The notes beneath the pieces were generated by a model, which searched no databases, was not told the origin of the DNA, and saw only the letters and a list, made by a program, of their open reading frames with translations. A DNA stretch of 64,000 nt, taken from the sequence record MN850645.1; one strand, written 5' to 3'. Position numbers and translations under genes: made by a program. Shown piece after piece: positions 4,988 to 10,835 of this stretch; the first letter of the stretch is position 1; the number at the start of each line of letters is the position of its first letter. Origin of the DNA: Escherichia phage outra.

Positions 4988-5026
4988 AAATCCTCCAAAA
5001 ATAAAGGGGCTTTCGCCCCTTTTTTA

Positions 5027-5989
5027 TTAAATTCCAATAACAGTGTTTACACGTTTCTCTTTGCTACGCAAATTAACACGTCCACGAGACAGGCTATTAC
5101 ATGATGTGCATCTTAGCACTTGGAATGTACTAACCGCTGTTGTGTAAACCTTACCAGGAACAACTTCAAGGTGCTCTTTACCGCAACGAGGACAACGAAG
5201 TTTTTCATCGTCATAGAATGCAGATACGTTAGGGTGTTGTGGAATCCACGCACGAAGTTTGATGTAAAGATCTCTAAGAGAAACAACATCACCATCGTTG
5301 TATGTTTGCATACGGAAGAAGGCGTGTCTGTCTCCTTCACAACATGCTTTCCACAAAGGAAAACCTTCATTATCAAGTTTAAAGTTTTCTGTATCAAAAT
5401 ACAAACACATTTCTTTAAGCGCATTAGAAGGTAGTGCAAACTGCTTCTTAGCAGCCTTGAGTGTATCAATTACAACGTAGTGTGATGGTGGCTCCATACC
5501 GTGAAAAGCAAAACGTTGGTTAATATAAGCCTTATCAAACTTAATACCGTTGTGCGCGATCACAATATCTGCATCGTCAAGCAAGTGCCACAGATCTTGA
5601 CATAATTCCCAATCATCTGTATGATCTATGTCAAACAGAGGATAATTGCTAAGGTTCTTACCTTCTACTTCTCCTGTTTCTAAATCAGCAGATGAATAGG
5701 AAAGCAAGTAACCTCGACGAATAACTTGTTCAGGTGCAATAAAGGCTTTGAAACGTGAGAAGCTATACACAATCTCCGGTGCTGTCTCTACGTCAATAAT
5801 TTTAATTACTGGCCCACCTTTATCTTGCGGAGCACCGCGATGCGGTGAATTTACACGAGCTAAGTAATCATTTACTGTGCTCTTCTTAGTAGAACTTCCC
5901 AACACCTCTTGTGCAATCTTACGCGAAGAATAACCTTGTGCTTTCATAGATACAATCAAGGCTTTCTGTTCGTCTGTTAATTTACTCAA
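5027..5989 (-). CDS. DEDDh-type 3'-5' exonuclease with N-terminal HTH and C-terminal zinc ribbon (putative)
   Basis: Exo I-like IIDVETAPE, Exo II-like IAHNGIKFDKAYI, C-terminal CPRCGKEH...CTSCNS; N-terminal SSRKIAQEV HTH-like segment. Confidence 0.5.
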   Translation of the reverse strand: MSKLTDEQKALIVSMKAQGYSSRKIAQEVLGSSTKKSTVNDYLARVNSPHRGAPQDKGGPVIKIIDVETAPEIVYSFSRFKAFIAPEQVIRRGYLLSYSSADLETGEVEGKNLSNYPLFDIDHTDDWELCQDLWHLLDDADIVIAHNGIKFDKAYINQRFAFHGMEPPSHYVVIDTLKAAKKQFALPSNALKEMCLYFDTENFKLDNEGFPLWKACCEGDRHAFFRMQTYNDGDVVSLRDLYIKLRAWIPQHPNVSAFYDDEKLRCPRCGKEHLEVVPGKVYTTAVSTFQVLRCTSCNSLSRGRVNLRSKEKRVNTVIGI

Positions 5990-7020
5990 TGTTCCTCCTG
6001 CTCTGAAATATATGCTTGTAGCATACTTTCAAAAGTTGTTTCATCATTCGCCCAACGTTTCATATATACCAACTGAAAAATTGTCTCTATCCATTCATCA
6101 GTTGTCATTTCTACTTCTTCACCATCCCAAGAAGTAAATTTAACGCCATCTGGGAACCATTCATAATACTGATCTTTAACTGTCTGAAAAAGTTCAGCCT
6201 GTGTTTTACATTTGGAAATAAGATTAAAGCAAGTAATATCTCCAAACTTAACATCGAAATCTTGGTAAGGTCGAATACTATCTGTCTTATCGCCCATTAG
6301 CATTTGATAAGCTAACCAGTAACTACCCCAGCCCTTAATTTCTTTTTTCTTACCTTTTTCTACGATCCAGATATCACCAATAGATTCATCAATCAGAATA
6401 ATACAAGGATTTTTATAAACACCATCCTCTTTATAAAAGTTAAAGAGTAAACTTGGTGTGTGCAAGCTATCTTTGTCGATAGACGCTACAATATGAGAAA
6501 ACTTACCAGTTTCCTTGTAGGCTTTATACCCTGCATATCCATAAATTTCTAAAGCATCATCTGCCTCAATACCAGTAACAACGTCACCGTTATGTTTTTC
6601 AACTAGATAATCTTTAGTATCTGATAAATGGATTGGTCTTAAATCTGATCGTTCTGATTTATATTCTTTTGGCATTTTGAAAGAATGCCGGAAGGTTTTT
6701 CCTACCCCGATGACACCGCAATACTTTTGAAGTTTTAGGTGATCCATCATCTGGGTTATTTTTGTCTTTGCAGCTTGAAACGTAAAAGAAATATTATCTG
6801 GGACTATTTGAACATCTTTTATTTCAAAATCTTCTCTAGAGAACAACTTTTTACCAGCAGCTTCGCGTTGCGCGTTAAGTGCTCCTAACCATCCTCCAAT
6901 ATTTTTTGAAGATTTACCCCAAAAATCTGTTCTTGTTTCAAACTCTTTTACATTACCGGAAGCCTTATGTACAGCGTGGATTTTTCTTTGTTCTAAAGCT
7001 GAAGACGCTTGGAACGCCAC
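5986..7020 (-). CDS. FEN-like 5'-3' exonuclease / flap endonuclease (putative)
   Basis: VTGIEADDALEIYGY resembles the GxEADD motif of T5 D15 / T4 RNase H; downstream SIDKDSL and MGDKTDSIRPY resemble the second acidic cluster and H3TH region. Confidence 0.55.
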   Translation of the reverse strand: MAFQASSALEQRKIHAVHKASGNVKEFETRTDFWGKSSKNIGGWLGALNAQREAAGKKLFSREDFEIKDVQIVPDNISFTFQAAKTKITQMMDHLKLQKYCGVIGVGKTFRHSFKMPKEYKSERSDLRPIHLSDTKDYLVEKHNGDVVTGIEADDALEIYGYAGYKAYKETGKFSHIVASIDKDSLHTPSLLFNFYKEDGVYKNPCIILIDESIGDIWIVEKGKKKEIKGWGSYWLAYQMLMGDKTDSIRPYQDFDVKFGDITCFNLISKCKTQAELFQTVKDQYYEWFPDGVKFTSWDGEEVEMTTDEWIETIFQLVYMKRWANDETTFESMLQAYISEQEEH

Positions 7021-7112
7021 TTGATCGTAGTCTATTGCAAGAATTGTGTTCTCGTCAACATATTTGTGCAGGTCTTCCGGTTGGATTAAAATGTAACCGC
7101 TAATATTACCTC

Positions 7113-7325
7113 CTATTCATCATCTGAACTCTCTGTTGAGAATGTTCGTGTGTAGGGACACTGACGACTTGCAGAAACCTCTATAACCTTGTCGTACATA
7201 CCGTTAGAGTAAAAACAGTATTTTGTACTTCCAGAAACTTGTTCTCCAGAATTAATTAAAGTTATTTGACCAGCATAAGAATAAGAACTGATTACTAAAA
7301 GTAAACCGACAAGAAGTTTTTTCAT
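7113..7325 (-). CDS. small secreted protein (70 aa) with N-terminal signal peptide
   Basis: MKKLLVGLLLVISSYSYAG hydrophobic leader, then 50-aa mature region with 2 Cys; own RBS. Confidence 0.45.
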   Translation of the reverse strand: MKKLLVGLLLVISSYSYAGQITLINSGEQVSGSTKYCFYSNGMYDKVIEVSASRQCPYTRTFSTESSDDE

Positions 7326-7399
7326 GGTGTGTCTCCTTAAAAGCCCACCTAACTAAGTAGGTAGGCATATTAACACATATTAAATTAGTAAGTCAAGTA

Positions 7400-8284
7400 T
7401 TATTTTTGAATAGTTGACTTGATAAGGTCTTGCATAATACCACGGATTTCATTAAAGCACAGAAGGACAGATGCTTCAAAAGATCCTTCTTCATCATTAA
7501 AGTATTTAGGGAATTTAATACCACTCAACTTAAATTCTTTATCAACAATAAAGTTAACGAATCCGTCATATTCCAGACCAATGGCAACAACGTGCTTACC
7601 ATCTTCCATAAGTTCTACTGCACGAGATTCATAAAGTGACTCTTTACTCCATACAACCACACCTTCCGAATCTTCAAGTTTAATATAATTACCAAGGGTC
7701 AGTCGTTCAGCCTCATGTTCTTCTAAGATGGTATCAAAACCTTTAATAATGGCTTCTTCGTGTACACTAAACGGCAGAACTGGGAAAGTACCCAACACCT
7801 CACGAAGAAATACAGCAATATCTTCACTAATTTTCTTAGAACCATTAAGAACATAGGTAATACTGTTTTCAGTGTCTACAACAACATAGTTATAGAAATC
7901 ATCTGCCTCTGTTTCTGGAAGCAGAGAAAACACGATATCAGCCTCAATTGCTTTTTTACTTTCTTTGTCCAAGAAAAATTCTTTAGTAGGGTTTGCAGCA
8001 ATAAACTCTTGTTCCATCTCTTGGAGTTTTTCATTAAGAATGCGTTTAACTTTTTTCTTGTTAACTTTCTTAACAGATTGCCCTACTTTAATAACCTCTA
8101 AACCAGAGAACACTTTTACATAGGAACCATCATCTTCAAAACGAACAAGACCAATGGTATGTGCTTGTTGACCCTGTGCCACAACAAAATCCAGCGGTTT
8201 GTCTGTTACTGTGTTCAGTGCGGAAATAGACAGACCATCACCAGAAATCAGGGTTACGCAAGATTTGAAATTTTTAGCAAACAT
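7400..8284 (-). CDS. RdgC-like recombination-associated protein (putative)
   Basis: ~295 aa; segments FAKNFKSC, SLLPETEADDF and GTFPVLPFS parallel E. coli RdgC landmarks; start trimmed to ATG at 8284 (RBS GAGGAG). Confidence 0.45.
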   Translation of the reverse strand: MFAKNFKSCVTLISGDGLSISALNTVTDKPLDFVVAQGQQAHTIGLVRFEDDGSYVKVFSGLEVIKVGQSVKKVNKKKVKRILNEKLQEMEQEFIAANPTKEFFLDKESKKAIEADIVFSLLPETEADDFYNYVVVDTENSITYVLNGSKKISEDIAVFLREVLGTFPVLPFSVHEEAIIKGFDTILEEHEAERLTLGNYIKLEDSEGVVVWSKESLYESRAVELMEDGKHVVAIGLEYDGFVNFIVDKEFKLSGIKFPKYFNDEEGSFEASVLLCFNEIRGIMQDLIKSTIQK

Positions 8285-8294
8285 AGTTTTCTCC

Positions 8295-8573
8295 TCAAAT
8301 AACAACTACAAAATATTTTACGCCATCATATTCGACAATATGATCAGGATATTTAAATCCTTTATAAGATTTACCAAACAGACTAACAGCCTCATTAGCT
8401 TTGTTTTGCGGATTACTCAGCCACTGTTCTTCTGTGTAAAACTTAAACTCTGTTCTCTTACCTTCTTTTTCTAAACCAACAATTTCCTGTGTGATATCTT
8501 CAATACCTGCATTCTTCAAGGATTTGATTACCTGACGCAAACCGTGTTTAAAGATATCTTCTGCTGTTAACAT
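8295..8573 (-). CDS. hypothetical protein (92 aa)
   Basis: ORF track only. Confidence 0.35.
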   Translation of the reverse strand: MLTAEDIFKHGLRQVIKSLKNAGIEDITQEIVGLEKEGKRTEFKFYTEEQWLSNPQNKANEAVSLFGKSYKGFKYPDHIVEYDGVKYFVVVI

Positions 8574-8609
8574 AATACCTCCAATAAGCCCCCGAAGGGG
8601 CTTTATTTC

Positions 8610-9332
8610 TTAAGCAATGATTGCTGCGATATTAGGTTTAACAAAGGTAGATGGTTTCATAATTTTACCTTTGTCATCAAAGAATACGTACACCTTTTGA
8701 ACTTCGTTATATACAGCATGTACCCCAGTATAAGAACCTTCTGCACGATCTTTGCTTCGCATCTCGATAGCATCGCACTCTTTTTCAAGAGCTTCAATAA
8801 TATCCTTAGTTTCCCAAATAGCCAGGAGTTGCTTCTTGGTAGGATACTTGGACTCATTGCTATTCAACACTTCACGCATAACTTTCTTCTCGTTATAAAC
8901 AGAACGCACCAAAGTATCTCGTGCCATACGGGTAAGTGTAAGAGACATTAAGGCAAATTGCAAGTCATTTTCTACCATTTTATCAAATTCAATGATAACA
9001 TCGTAAATGTTTTCTGCCAGAACATCCCCTGTCGGCATTTCCAGAGCTTTATCAACACCTTCTTTACCAAAGAACATAAATGCCAGGTAGGATGCTACCA
9101 CAAAAATATCTGCTGCTGCATCAAGTAATTCAACGTGATCATTTTCCTGTGCTGCTGCTTGGAACTCTTTAAGTTCTTCTCGTACAAAAGAAAGTTGAGC
9201 TTCAAACATCTCTTGAGTAAATTCTGGAGTTACTCCACCACGTGCCTTAGCATTCCAAGCAACAATTTGATCGGCAGCTTTGATAAAGAAGCTATTGTCC
9301 ACTTTTACTTGTTTGAAAAAATTCTCGATCAT
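8610..9332 (-). CDS. MazG-like nucleoside triphosphate pyrophosphohydrolase domain protein (putative)
   Basis: N-terminal EELKEFQAAAQENDHVELLDAAADIFVV resembles the MazG/HisE EExxE...D metal-binding helix pair; C-terminal half unknown. Confidence 0.4.
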   Translation of the reverse strand: MIENFFKQVKVDNSFFIKAADQIVAWNAKARGGVTPEFTQEMFEAQLSFVREELKEFQAAAQENDHVELLDAAADIFVVASYLAFMFFGKEGVDKALEMPTGDVLAENIYDVIIEFDKMVENDLQFALMSLTLTRMARDTLVRSVYNEKKVMREVLNSNESKYPTKKQLLAIWETKDIIEALEKECDAIEMRSKDRAEGSYTGVHAVYNEVQKVYVFFDDKGKIMKPSTFVKPNIAAIIA

Positions 9333-9529
9333 TGTTTCTCCTTATTTAAAATATTGTTCTAACAAAACACTAATGCGAACTACCGATTCGCCCATATACG
9401 CCCCAGCACAGAGGAAAACAACAAATCTACAAAAATTGCAGTACCATTTGTCCACTGGAAACGAGGCTAACATTATAATTGCAATAGCAATTAACATCAT
9501 AAGAACTGTTACTAATACCATATTACCTC

Positions 9530-10645
9530 TTACTCTGCTGGTTCCCAAGTACCTGGAATCATCTTACGTACACGTACCCCAACAGGCTTGGTAGGAATAC
9601 CTTCGTCTGAAAATTCTTCGTACTCTATTTCAACAAATTGACCAATAAGTGTCAAAGCATTTTCTTCTTTACGATAGTTAATGGTTTCATCTGAATCCTT
9701 ACGCATCAGGAATTCGACTACTTTACCATTTTCCATCTCGCCTGTCAATACCCCGTCACCATTTTTATCACGTTTTGCACTTACCACTTTAACTTCAAGC
9801 GTCTGACGTGGTTTACGTTTAATAACATCATAAGAACGTTTATCAAACTCGTAAACACCTTGTGCGTTACGATACACCACACCTTCCGCTTTTTCACGTA
9901 GAGCTTTTGCATAGAATTCATCAAACTGCTCTTGGTTTTCAATGTATTCTGTATGTACTACACAAATTAGTTCATCTAAACCTTTATCTTCAACAACTTC
10001 TTTTAGAGCAGCTAAAACTTGAACCCTCTTCTCAAATGGTACAGATGGCACAGGAACATCATATACATAGTATTTAAGAAGTGGTGTGTTAGCATTATGC
10101 TTTTTCCACGCACTATTAATTTGTTGAAGGCTAAGGACACCCAAACCAGCAAAAACTTCACCGTCAAGAGGATGACCAACTACTTCTTTAATGAAGGTTG
10201 GAATTTCTTCCCAGTGAGGTGGAAGTTTATATACCTCACCAGCTTTAGATAAACATTCACCTTGCATGTTAATCATTGAACGTAGACCATTCAATTTATA
10301 TTGTGCATAACCTGGGAACAAAACACGGTCAGCATAATCTTTATAATCCTGACATTTCATGGGTGTGGAAGGAACATGGTTTTCAGCTTCCTCTTTTGTT
10401 TTATAATACCCATTCTTAAGTTGCTTTGTCCATTTGGCAAGAGCTTCTATTTCAGCTTGTTCTTCTGCTGTTGTTTCATTGGAGCGACCAATATTTTTAG
10501 GTTCTGCCGTATAAGATTTGCTAGTGATCTTTCCACCTAATTGACCATGAGCAACAGTTACAACACTACCTTCGGTATAGACTGACCACTGTCTAATTTT
10601 ACCTGTAGAAGTTTTACCATATAATGTAGGATTAGTTTGTTTCAT
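9530..10645 (-). CDS. ATP-dependent DNA ligase
   Basis: Motif I KLNGLR (KxDG-type), ~370 aa; start moved to Met17 (10645) with GGAGG RBS, removing overlap with upstream ORF. Confidence 0.75.
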   Translation of the reverse strand: MKQTNPTLYGKTSTGKIRQWSVYTEGSVVTVAHGQLGGKITSKSYTAEPKNIGRSNETTAEEQAEIEALAKWTKQLKNGYYKTKEEAENHVPSTPMKCQDYKDYADRVLFPGYAQYKLNGLRSMINMQGECLSKAGEVYKLPPHWEEIPTFIKEVVGHPLDGEVFAGLGVLSLQQINSAWKKHNANTPLLKYYVYDVPVPSVPFEKRVQVLAALKEVVEDKGLDELICVVHTEYIENQEQFDEFYAKALREKAEGVVYRNAQGVYEFDKRSYDVIKRKPRQTLEVKVVSAKRDKNGDGVLTGEMENGKVVEFLMRKDSDETINYRKEENALTLIGQFVEIEYEEFSDEGIPTKPVGVRVRKMIPGTWEPAE

Positions 10646-10835
10646 CTCTAACCTCCAGTTGCGAAAGAACCCATTTAGCCATTTCAATTTCACCGTGTAG
10701 TCTGCCTAGTTCATAGGCATCATCAATATTACCACCAGTGTAATCATCCACCATAAAGTAAGGATCTTCACTACTGTTAGGCGCGTTTGCAATTCTCGTT
10801 AGTTCTTCAATAAATGTCATAGTTAACCTTACCAA
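10632..10835 (-). CDS. hypothetical protein (67 aa)
   Basis: ORF track only. Confidence 0.35.
   Translation of the reverse strand: MVRLTMTFIEELTRIANAPNSSEDPYFMVDDYTGGNIDDAYELGRLHGEIEMAKWVLSQLEVRDETN

Follow-up and report, generated by a model that had tools for sequence, protein, structure and literature searches.

At positions 7,113 to 7,325 of the DNA analyzed here, a gene for what appears to be a small exported protein lies in a cluster of genes for cytoplasmic DNA metabolism, which raises the question of what such a protein does there. The window, by which we mean the whole stretch of 64,000 nucleotides from Escherichia phage outra (MN850645.1), had been described in an earlier note as encoding at this place a small secreted protein with two cysteines, set among DNA-metabolism genes and possibly acting in superinfection exclusion or receptor masking. 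The description of the protein and of its surroundings holds. A 70-aa ORF on the minus strand fills the interval exactly, from an ATG at 7325-7323 to a TAG at 7115-7113, and encodes the pre-protein MKKLLVGLLLVISSYSYAGQITLINSGEQVSGSTKYCFYSNGMYDKVIEVSASRQCPYTRTFSTESSDDE; the identical protein of phage phi92 carries a SignalP 3.0 feature, the two cysteines are C37 and C56, and Pfam and PHROG matches identify the neighbors as RdgC-like, exonuclease, DnaQ-like, MazG-like, and ligase genes. The remaining ORFs that overlap 7113..7325 are short, lie in different frames, and lack annotation or homology support. The gene and its parts are as follows.

7113..7325, minus strand: gp086 coding sequence including the stop codon, encoding the 70-aa pre-protein (ORF, homology, PHROG 4641, dN/dS)
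7272..7325, minus strand: codons of the predicted signal peptide, residues 1–18 (MKKLLVGLLLVISSYSYA; phi92 SignalP 3.0 feature and n/h/c rules)
7116..7271, minus strand: mature acidic protein of 52 aa with four predicted β-strands (AlphaFold2, alignments, computed properties)
7333..7338, minus strand: Shine-Dalgarno sequence AAGGAG, 7 nt upstream of the ATG (read from the sequence)

The product is 100% identical to phi92 gp086 (CBY99514.1, ‘conserved hypothetical protein’), whose name we use throughout, and bases 5000-10700 of the window share 98.5–98.7% identity with many genomes of Justusliebigvirus, the phi92-like E. coli myoviruses of the Stephanstirmvirinae. The exact protein is present in 551 contigs of a large contig collection, where every source names it ‘hypothetical’. 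It matches PHROG 4641 (E 9.5e-26, residues 1–63 against profile positions 1–68 of 68), and dN/dS between diverged homologs is about 0.12–0.28, with synonymous sites near saturation. The phi92 record also annotates a ribosome-binding site, AGGAG, at the same place as AAGGAG 7338-7333. The PHROG match and the low dN/dS, together with a confident AlphaFold2 model and the invariant residues C37, Y39, and C56, mark gp086 as a real protein; judged by these comparisons, the ORF is a real gene under purifying selection and not a chance reading frame. Both the ORF and its signal peptide have been annotated in GenBank for years and will not surprise a specialist. Literature searches returned no paper on gp086 or its family, and the names that databases give to the family are limited to ‘hypothetical’, ‘secreted’, or ‘membrane protein’.

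The N-terminus has the features of a Sec and signal peptidase I pre-protein, namely a charged n-region, an h-region within the range of 7–15 residues, and small residues at −3 and −1. The n-region is MKK, the h-region LLVGLLLVI (mean Kyte-Doolittle hydropathy 3.5), and the c-region SSYSYA, with predicted cleavage between A18 and G19 that leaves S at −3 and A at −1. In the phi92 gp086 record, a sig_peptide feature of 54 nt (18 aa) is assigned by SignalP 3.0 at a probability of 1.000, which places the start of the mature protein at G19. The signal peptide proposed in the earlier note is thus present, although the peptide string given there runs one residue too long. A rule-based check found the same n/h/c layout and −3/−1 rule in 42 of the 44 single-domain relatives. 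There is no lipobox ([LVI][ASTVI][GAS]C) in gp086, as residues 1–36 contain no cysteine and the first, C37, lies in β-strand 2.

The mature protein has 52 residues, a mass of 5.8 kDa, and a pI of 4.6, and it ends in an acidic tail, STESSDDE; most single-domain relatives have a D/E-rich tail as well. C37 (codon 7217-7215), Y39, and C56 (codon 7160-7158) are invariant across 42 aligned sequences and repeat units of the family, and E28, G32, K35, and P57 are conserved in at least 90% of the same set. Exactly two cysteines occur in the mature part of all 44 single-domain relatives, spaced C-x18-C in 37 of them, and a periplasmic disulfide would be expected to leave just such a conserved pair in an exported protein. 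AlphaFold2, run with an alignment of 39 rows, gives a pLDDT of 94–97 for residues 21–60, with strands at 20–31, 34–40, 45–51, and 59–63; low scores for the signal peptide and in the acidic tail are in line with expectation. With this high model confidence, mature gp086 is predicted to be a four-stranded β mini-domain, which would be a very small, probably very stable, single-disulfide β scaffold. Taking the N-terminus and the cysteines together, we predict with considerable assurance that gp086 is an exported, disulfide-bonded periplasmic protein.

All genes of the surrounding cluster lie on the minus strand. In the order of transcription they encode an ATP-dependent DNA ligase (PF01068), a small membrane protein, a MazG-like pyrophosphohydrolase, a 92-aa protein of no assigned function, an RdgC-like protein (PF04381, E 3.9e-20), gp086, a 5'-3' exonuclease (PHROG 107), and a DnaQ-like exonuclease subunit (PHROG 403). 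The small membrane protein is the product of a 59-aa ORF at 9342-9521 (minus strand), between the MazG-like and ligase genes, and is equivalent to phi92 gp090 and bas61_0237. It appears to have two hydrophobic segments (MVLVTVLMMLIAIAIIMLASF... FVVFLCAGAYMG) and would be a second envelope-directed protein of this DNA-metabolism cluster besides gp086. The sequences that flank gp086 contain three further features.

7367..7396, minus strand: σ70-type promoter-like site, starting directly after the stop codon of the rdgC-like gene (consensus scan)
7343..7366, minus strand: stem-loop of 9 bp with a 6-nt loop, −14.7 kcal/mol and a fold z-score of −2.7, between the −10 element and the Shine-Dalgarno sequence
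7102..7114, minus strand: AGGAGG (7114-7109), overlapping the gp086 TAG, followed by ATT (7104-7102) (frame and relatives)

The promoter-like site upstream of gp086 consists of a −35 element TTGACT (7396-7391), an 18-nt spacer, and an extended −10 element TGT-TAATAT (7375-7367). The same −35, TG, and −10 elements, with different spacers, precede the homologs in KP2025 (a phAPEC8-like phage), the metagenomic phage L012, and Salmonella phage SSE121, so that they are present in four of the five lineages compared; none were seen upstream of the homolog in the Erwinia phage, the fifth. The rV5 genome paper reports σ70-like promoters across the genome, 11 of them with extended −10 regions. Given that report and the site found here, early transcription of gp086 by host RNA polymerase is a reasonable inference. 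The stem-loop at 7366-7343 is followed directly by TTTT at 7342-7339, and hairpins of −14 to −17 kcal/mol stand at the equivalent place in five lineages with different sequences. Possible roles of this hairpin are termination or processing of the rdgC transcript, or a structured 5' end of the gp086 mRNA.

Downstream, the gp086 stop codon lies within the AGGAGG of the exonuclease gene, a layout that makes co-transcription of the two genes probable and translational coupling possible; the overlap of stop codon and ribosome-binding site is common to phi92- and phAPEC8-like phages. For the exonuclease (equivalent to phi92 gp085), the annotated start is an internal GTG at 7020, accompanied by the remark ‘No RBS identified’. 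The open frame extends back to 7116, and a conserved N-terminus, ISGYILIQPEDLHKYVDENTILAIDYDQ, lies upstream of that GTG. The start is therefore probably the non-canonical ATT at 7104-7102, 4 nt after AGGAGG, as read from the frame and its relatives. The equivalent start codon is ATT in L012, ATC in KP2025, CTG in L026, GTG in SSE121, and TTG in the Erwinia phage. This evidence for an upstream start points to a conserved non-ATG start and a truncation of 28 aa in current annotations.

The family of gp086 reaches further than the earlier note had suggested. With the window protein as query, tblastn finds the gene in 196 phage records, and with the SSE121 homolog as query in 294. The genera covered are Justusliebigvirus, Phapecoctavirus, rV5-type Vequintavirus, Seunavirus, Mydovirus, Henunavirus, the phiTE-like Pectobacterium phages, and others; the Seunavirus homolog PVP-SE1 gp119 is annotated as a ‘hypothetical membrane protein’. 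In every phage inspected the gene directly follows the RdgC-like gene, a position shared across the Stephanstirmvirinae and Vequintavirinae. Homologs of gp086 are 61–64% identical compared with 64–83% for the neighboring genes, a roughly equal rate of divergence in a comparison that leaves out the KP2025 exonuclease row and the poorly aligned SSE121 and Erwinia RdgC rows. Its constant position and neighbor-like divergence are those of a core gene shared by the entire rV5-like group.

Several observations made in the course of this survey concern individual records. In Seunavirus and Henunavirus, a gene for a very hydrophobic, polytopic membrane protein of 65–67 aa directly follows the gp086 homolog (L005 3193-3396 in SSE121; L004 3203-3400 in Erwinia phage pEa_SNUABM_55), and the window contains no homolog of it (tblastn E > 1). 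The KP2025 homolog (L003 2501-2710) is named a ‘gram-negative pili assembly chaperone’, a name that we reject as it has no Pfam, NCBIfam, or fold support. One candidate, H50 of Klebsiella phage K18PH07C1, was dropped, since the assembly is rich in frameshifted pseudogenes, the context differs, and the translation contains stop codons. A single-protein scan of genome contigs found no relative. Several GenBank records named ‘Campylobacter phage’ (MG065645, MG065656, MG065689, and others; host C. jejuni) share 98.6% identity with this Justusliebigvirus of E. coli over 5.7 kb, and are probably mislabeled or derived from contaminating coliphages.

The family also extends beyond phages. A profile search with the single-domain alignment returned 516 proteins, many of them chromosomal, from Klebsiella, Enterobacter, Raoultella, Citrobacter, E. 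coli, Leclercia, Buttiauxella, and Erwinia. Satellite-like integrative islands carry the homolog in Klebsiella, Enterobacter, E. coli, and Erwinia, and those of the first three genera also contain a gene for a phage-type head protein. The E. coli island, of about 13 kb, is located at tRNA-Gly(CCC) and encodes an integrase, a major head protein, and a replication initiator; by DNA similarity, the island variant of the gene is present in 79 of 5,426 complete E. coli genomes, and in one E. coli island the candidate defense gene PDC-S25 (SIR2-like, E 1.4e-160) adjoins the homolog. In the Klebsiella, Enterobacter, and Erwinia islands, the homolog starts 0–10 nt after the gene for a 186-aa Xer-like tyrosine recombinase that consists of the catalytic domain only, and the two genes form a conserved module (L015 7436-8204, L020 6430-7207, L028 1762-2525). 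We found no consistent inverted repeats in the islands that would mark an invertible switch of the FimB/E type around this recombinase. A long AT-rich stretch without called genes lies upstream of the module in Klebsiella and Enterobacter. The Klebsiella island also contains an uncalled 73-aa ORF (L015 8578-8799, minus strand) with the motif C-S-D-G-W-G-S-S-S-x-G-S-R-G-A-C-S-H-H-G-G-V between two hydrophobic segments, which we take to resemble a DUF3761-type motif. We set aside ‘Enterobacter phage SS-2025’ (11.6 kb) as an example of a packaged satellite, as it is an unverified partial genome without annotation.

When repeat units were included, the profile search gave 555 matches. Among the matches listed, most are secreted proteins of about 130 aa from soil and environmental bacteria, in which two gp086-type domains stand in tandem, joined by a linker rich in Pro, Ala, and Thr. 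Eight non-phage contexts were inspected in total, four of which are those of soil two-domain homologs. One of these four lies within about 2 kb of AbiEi_2/NTP_transf_8 genes; another sits in what resembles a prophage, among genes for an S24 repressor, Amidase_2, and a methylase of the Dam type; a third is between a 1,274-aa SIR2_2 protein and an HmaA-type SNF2 helicase (E 0; L030 1-8399); and the fourth is directly upstream of ZacA/ZacB/ZacC (E 1e-109 to 1e-176; L031 4001-8375). The gp086-type domain may be a recurrent passenger or component of defense islands. Three phmmer matches (P0008, P0018, and P0030) are long repeat proteins that we judged spurious.

It is these relatives in mobile elements and anti-phage defense islands that make an envelope-level block of other phages the leading guess for gp086, and the exclusion proposed in the earlier note draws in addition on the precedents of Spackle and Llp. 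The eight island contexts provide guilt by association, a weak form of argument. In the mechanism that we envisage, host RNA polymerase would transcribe the gene early, and the pre-protein would be exported through Sec and cleaved after A18. DsbA would then oxidize C37 and C56 in the periplasm, giving a soluble, protease-resistant binder of 5.8 kDa. The target that the mature protein binds at the envelope might belong to the host, as a periplasmic or inner-membrane protein on which genome entry depends, or might be part of an incoming phage, in its tail-tip or tape-measure apparatus. A cell that is infected or carries the island would thereby become refractory to the entry of further phage genomes, a superinfection-exclusion type of effect that would here be due to a family with no relation to Spackle, Llp, Imm, Sim, or Cor. 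Taken as a whole, a role for gp086 in exclusion or phage conflict at the envelope is a tentative proposal, argued by analogy and from genomic context, that we consider plausible yet somewhat more apt to be wrong than right.

Exclusion genes are usually variable accessory genes. The fixed position of gp086 in two subfamilies and its neighbor-like divergence weaken the simple picture of an accessory exclusion gene, as do the lack of a relation to Spackle or Llp, the missing lipobox, and a phi92 virion paper in which no lysozyme appears. The first two of these points lend weight to the main rival, that gp086 serves the phage's own cycle in the periplasm rather than excluding competitors, whether by timing lysis (in the manner of an antiholin or sensor), by stabilizing the envelope, or by inhibiting a host protease, peptidoglycan hydrolase, or endonuclease I. 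A gene held in place in 294 phage records across the rV5-like genera, diverging no faster than the replication and recombination genes around it, fits such a task, as does a probable operon shared with the exonuclease whose ribosome-binding site overlaps the gp086 stop; the small polytopic membrane protein encoded directly after it in Seunavirus and Henunavirus also speaks for this rival. On the other hand, no lysis genes adjoin it, and the copies in non-phage defense islands and recombinase-linked islands have no phage lysis cycle to serve. In a Keio screen with the V5-like phage LL12, the genes required were confined to those for LPS; secB proved dispensable, and dsbA goes unmentioned. This weakly suggests that a gp086-type protein is not essential for plaques on K-12, as would suit an accessory role, and the missing dependence on dsbA or secB counts slightly against an own-cycle role. 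According to that paper, SecB and PpiB matter for LL5 and not for LL12. An own-cycle role is a possibility to be taken seriously, though we would give it less credence than exclusion or conflict at the envelope.

The remaining explanations are less probable. The exported protein might neutralize a defense or sensor of the host that is associated with the envelope, for example a membrane-anchored detector of envelope perturbation. An apparently early gene, universal in a group of virulent phages of broad host range, would suit an anti-defense factor, and one soil homolog stands directly upstream of ZacABC. The copies in islands and defense islands nonetheless favor a role on the side of the host or element, and we know of no anti-defense protein that is both periplasmic and related to gp086, which leaves this explanation improbable. 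An inhibitor of the Spackle type, directed at the tail-associated lysozyme of incoming phages, would agree with a small, exported, apparently early protein with one cysteine pair, and with its acidity (pI 4.6), given the basic patch that Spackle binds on gp5 lysozyme; it is made very unlikely by a model that is all-β where Spackle is a helical bundle, and by a phi92 virion paper that mentions neither lysozyme nor peptidoglycan. We attach just as little weight to the view that the hydrophobic N-terminus is an uncleaved membrane anchor or that the ORF is not expressed. The label ‘membrane protein’ on several homolog records, such as that of PVP-SE1 gp119, speaks for an anchor, but an h-region of just 9–10 residues is followed by a polar c-region with small −3/−1 residues (42/44 relatives), and SignalP returns a probability of 1.000 for the identical phi92 protein; purifying selection and the confident fold speak against a non-gene.

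Conflict at the envelope stays our preferred, if tentative, reading. In its broader form, gp086 would be the phage member of an unrecognized, widespread mini-domain, some 45 aa long, that is exported, bears the motif T-x5-E-x3-G-x2-K-x-C-x-Y-x16-C-P, and forms a new class of periplasmic anti-phage or exclusion effector whose mechanism differs from those of Spackle, Imm, Llp, Cor, and Sim; this larger claim is the more doubtful of the two, and we would sooner expect it to fail. As a candidate for a new family of proteins that act at the envelope in phage conflict, gp086 is of modest interest. Envelope-level defenses are under-represented in current catalogs, and this family is absent from PADLOC, Pfam, and NCBIfam. 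Therapeutic collections and cocktails often include phi92-, phAPEC8-, and rV5-like phages, and if the proposal were true for all of them, cocktail design and the outcome of co-infection would be affected. Even if gp086 proves dispensable, the annotation would be fixed for a gene found in hundreds of phage genomes and, as the island variant, in about 80 of 5,426 complete E. coli genomes.

Comparison with known families and systems sets gp086 apart. Nothing in Pfam-A or NCBIfam scored above the curated cut-off for gp086 or ten homologs, and PADLOC-DB 2.0 gave no defense family at E ≤ 1 for gp086 or five homologs. A profile search of PDB chain sequences had no match at E ≤ 10, and hence no sequence match to Spackle, for which solved structures exist; Foldseek against the PDB returned no significant fold match for the gp086 model (best E 0.06), and the matches in BFVD were confined to members of the gp086 family. 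The window protein belongs to the family of PHROG 4641, phi92 gp086, and PVP-SE1 gp119, a membership that says nothing on mechanism, since the family has no assigned function.

The closest functional parallel is T4 Spackle (Sp, gp61.3), the gene of which also sits among DNA-replication genes. Spackle has several of the known or predicted traits of gp086: it comes from a virulent myovirus, is expressed early, and starts out as a small pre-protein that loses its export signal by cleavage and has a single pair of cysteines. It is a periplasmic, single-disulfide protein that mediates exclusion and binds a basic patch on the gp5 lysozyme. Mature Spackle is an α-helical bundle of 75 aa, whereas mature gp086, at 52 aa, is modeled as all-β, and the tail lysozyme gp5 has no described counterpart in the phi92 virion. 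The 2026 paper on the structure of that virion describes hub, spike, plug, tape measure, and wedge proteins and mentions no gp86, lysozyme, or peptidoglycan activity, a weak argument against a Spackle-type target.

In T5, the llp gene adjoins that of the receptor-binding protein, unlike the gp086 gene, which in every phage inspected is flanked by the rdgC-like and exonuclease genes. T5 Llp, which excludes further infection by acting on the envelope, resembles gp086 in that it is a small phage protein, is exported, and has one disulfide (Cys11-Cys58), as predicted for gp086. As an acylated lipoprotein of the outer membrane, Llp binds and blocks the receptor FhuA, whereas gp086 lacks a lipobox and is predicted to be cleaved by signal peptidase I. 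The PDB profile and Foldseek searches revealed no sequence or fold relation of gp086 to either Spackle or Llp; in sequence, fold, lipobox, and gene position, as far as each was compared, gp086 falls outside both families, and a mechanism specifically of the Spackle or Llp type is not supported.

Bacteria themselves produce periplasmic lysozyme inhibitors, Ivy and PliC/MliC. These share with gp086 the character of small, exported, β-rich, disulfide-containing periplasmic binders, a likeness that is a functional analogy only, as there was no match between them in the family and PDB sequence searches and none of significance in the fold searches. Set against all these systems, gp086 represents a family with no characterized relative, and what we add here is its extent, from the rV5-like phages through recombinase-linked islands to tandem-domain copies in defense islands.
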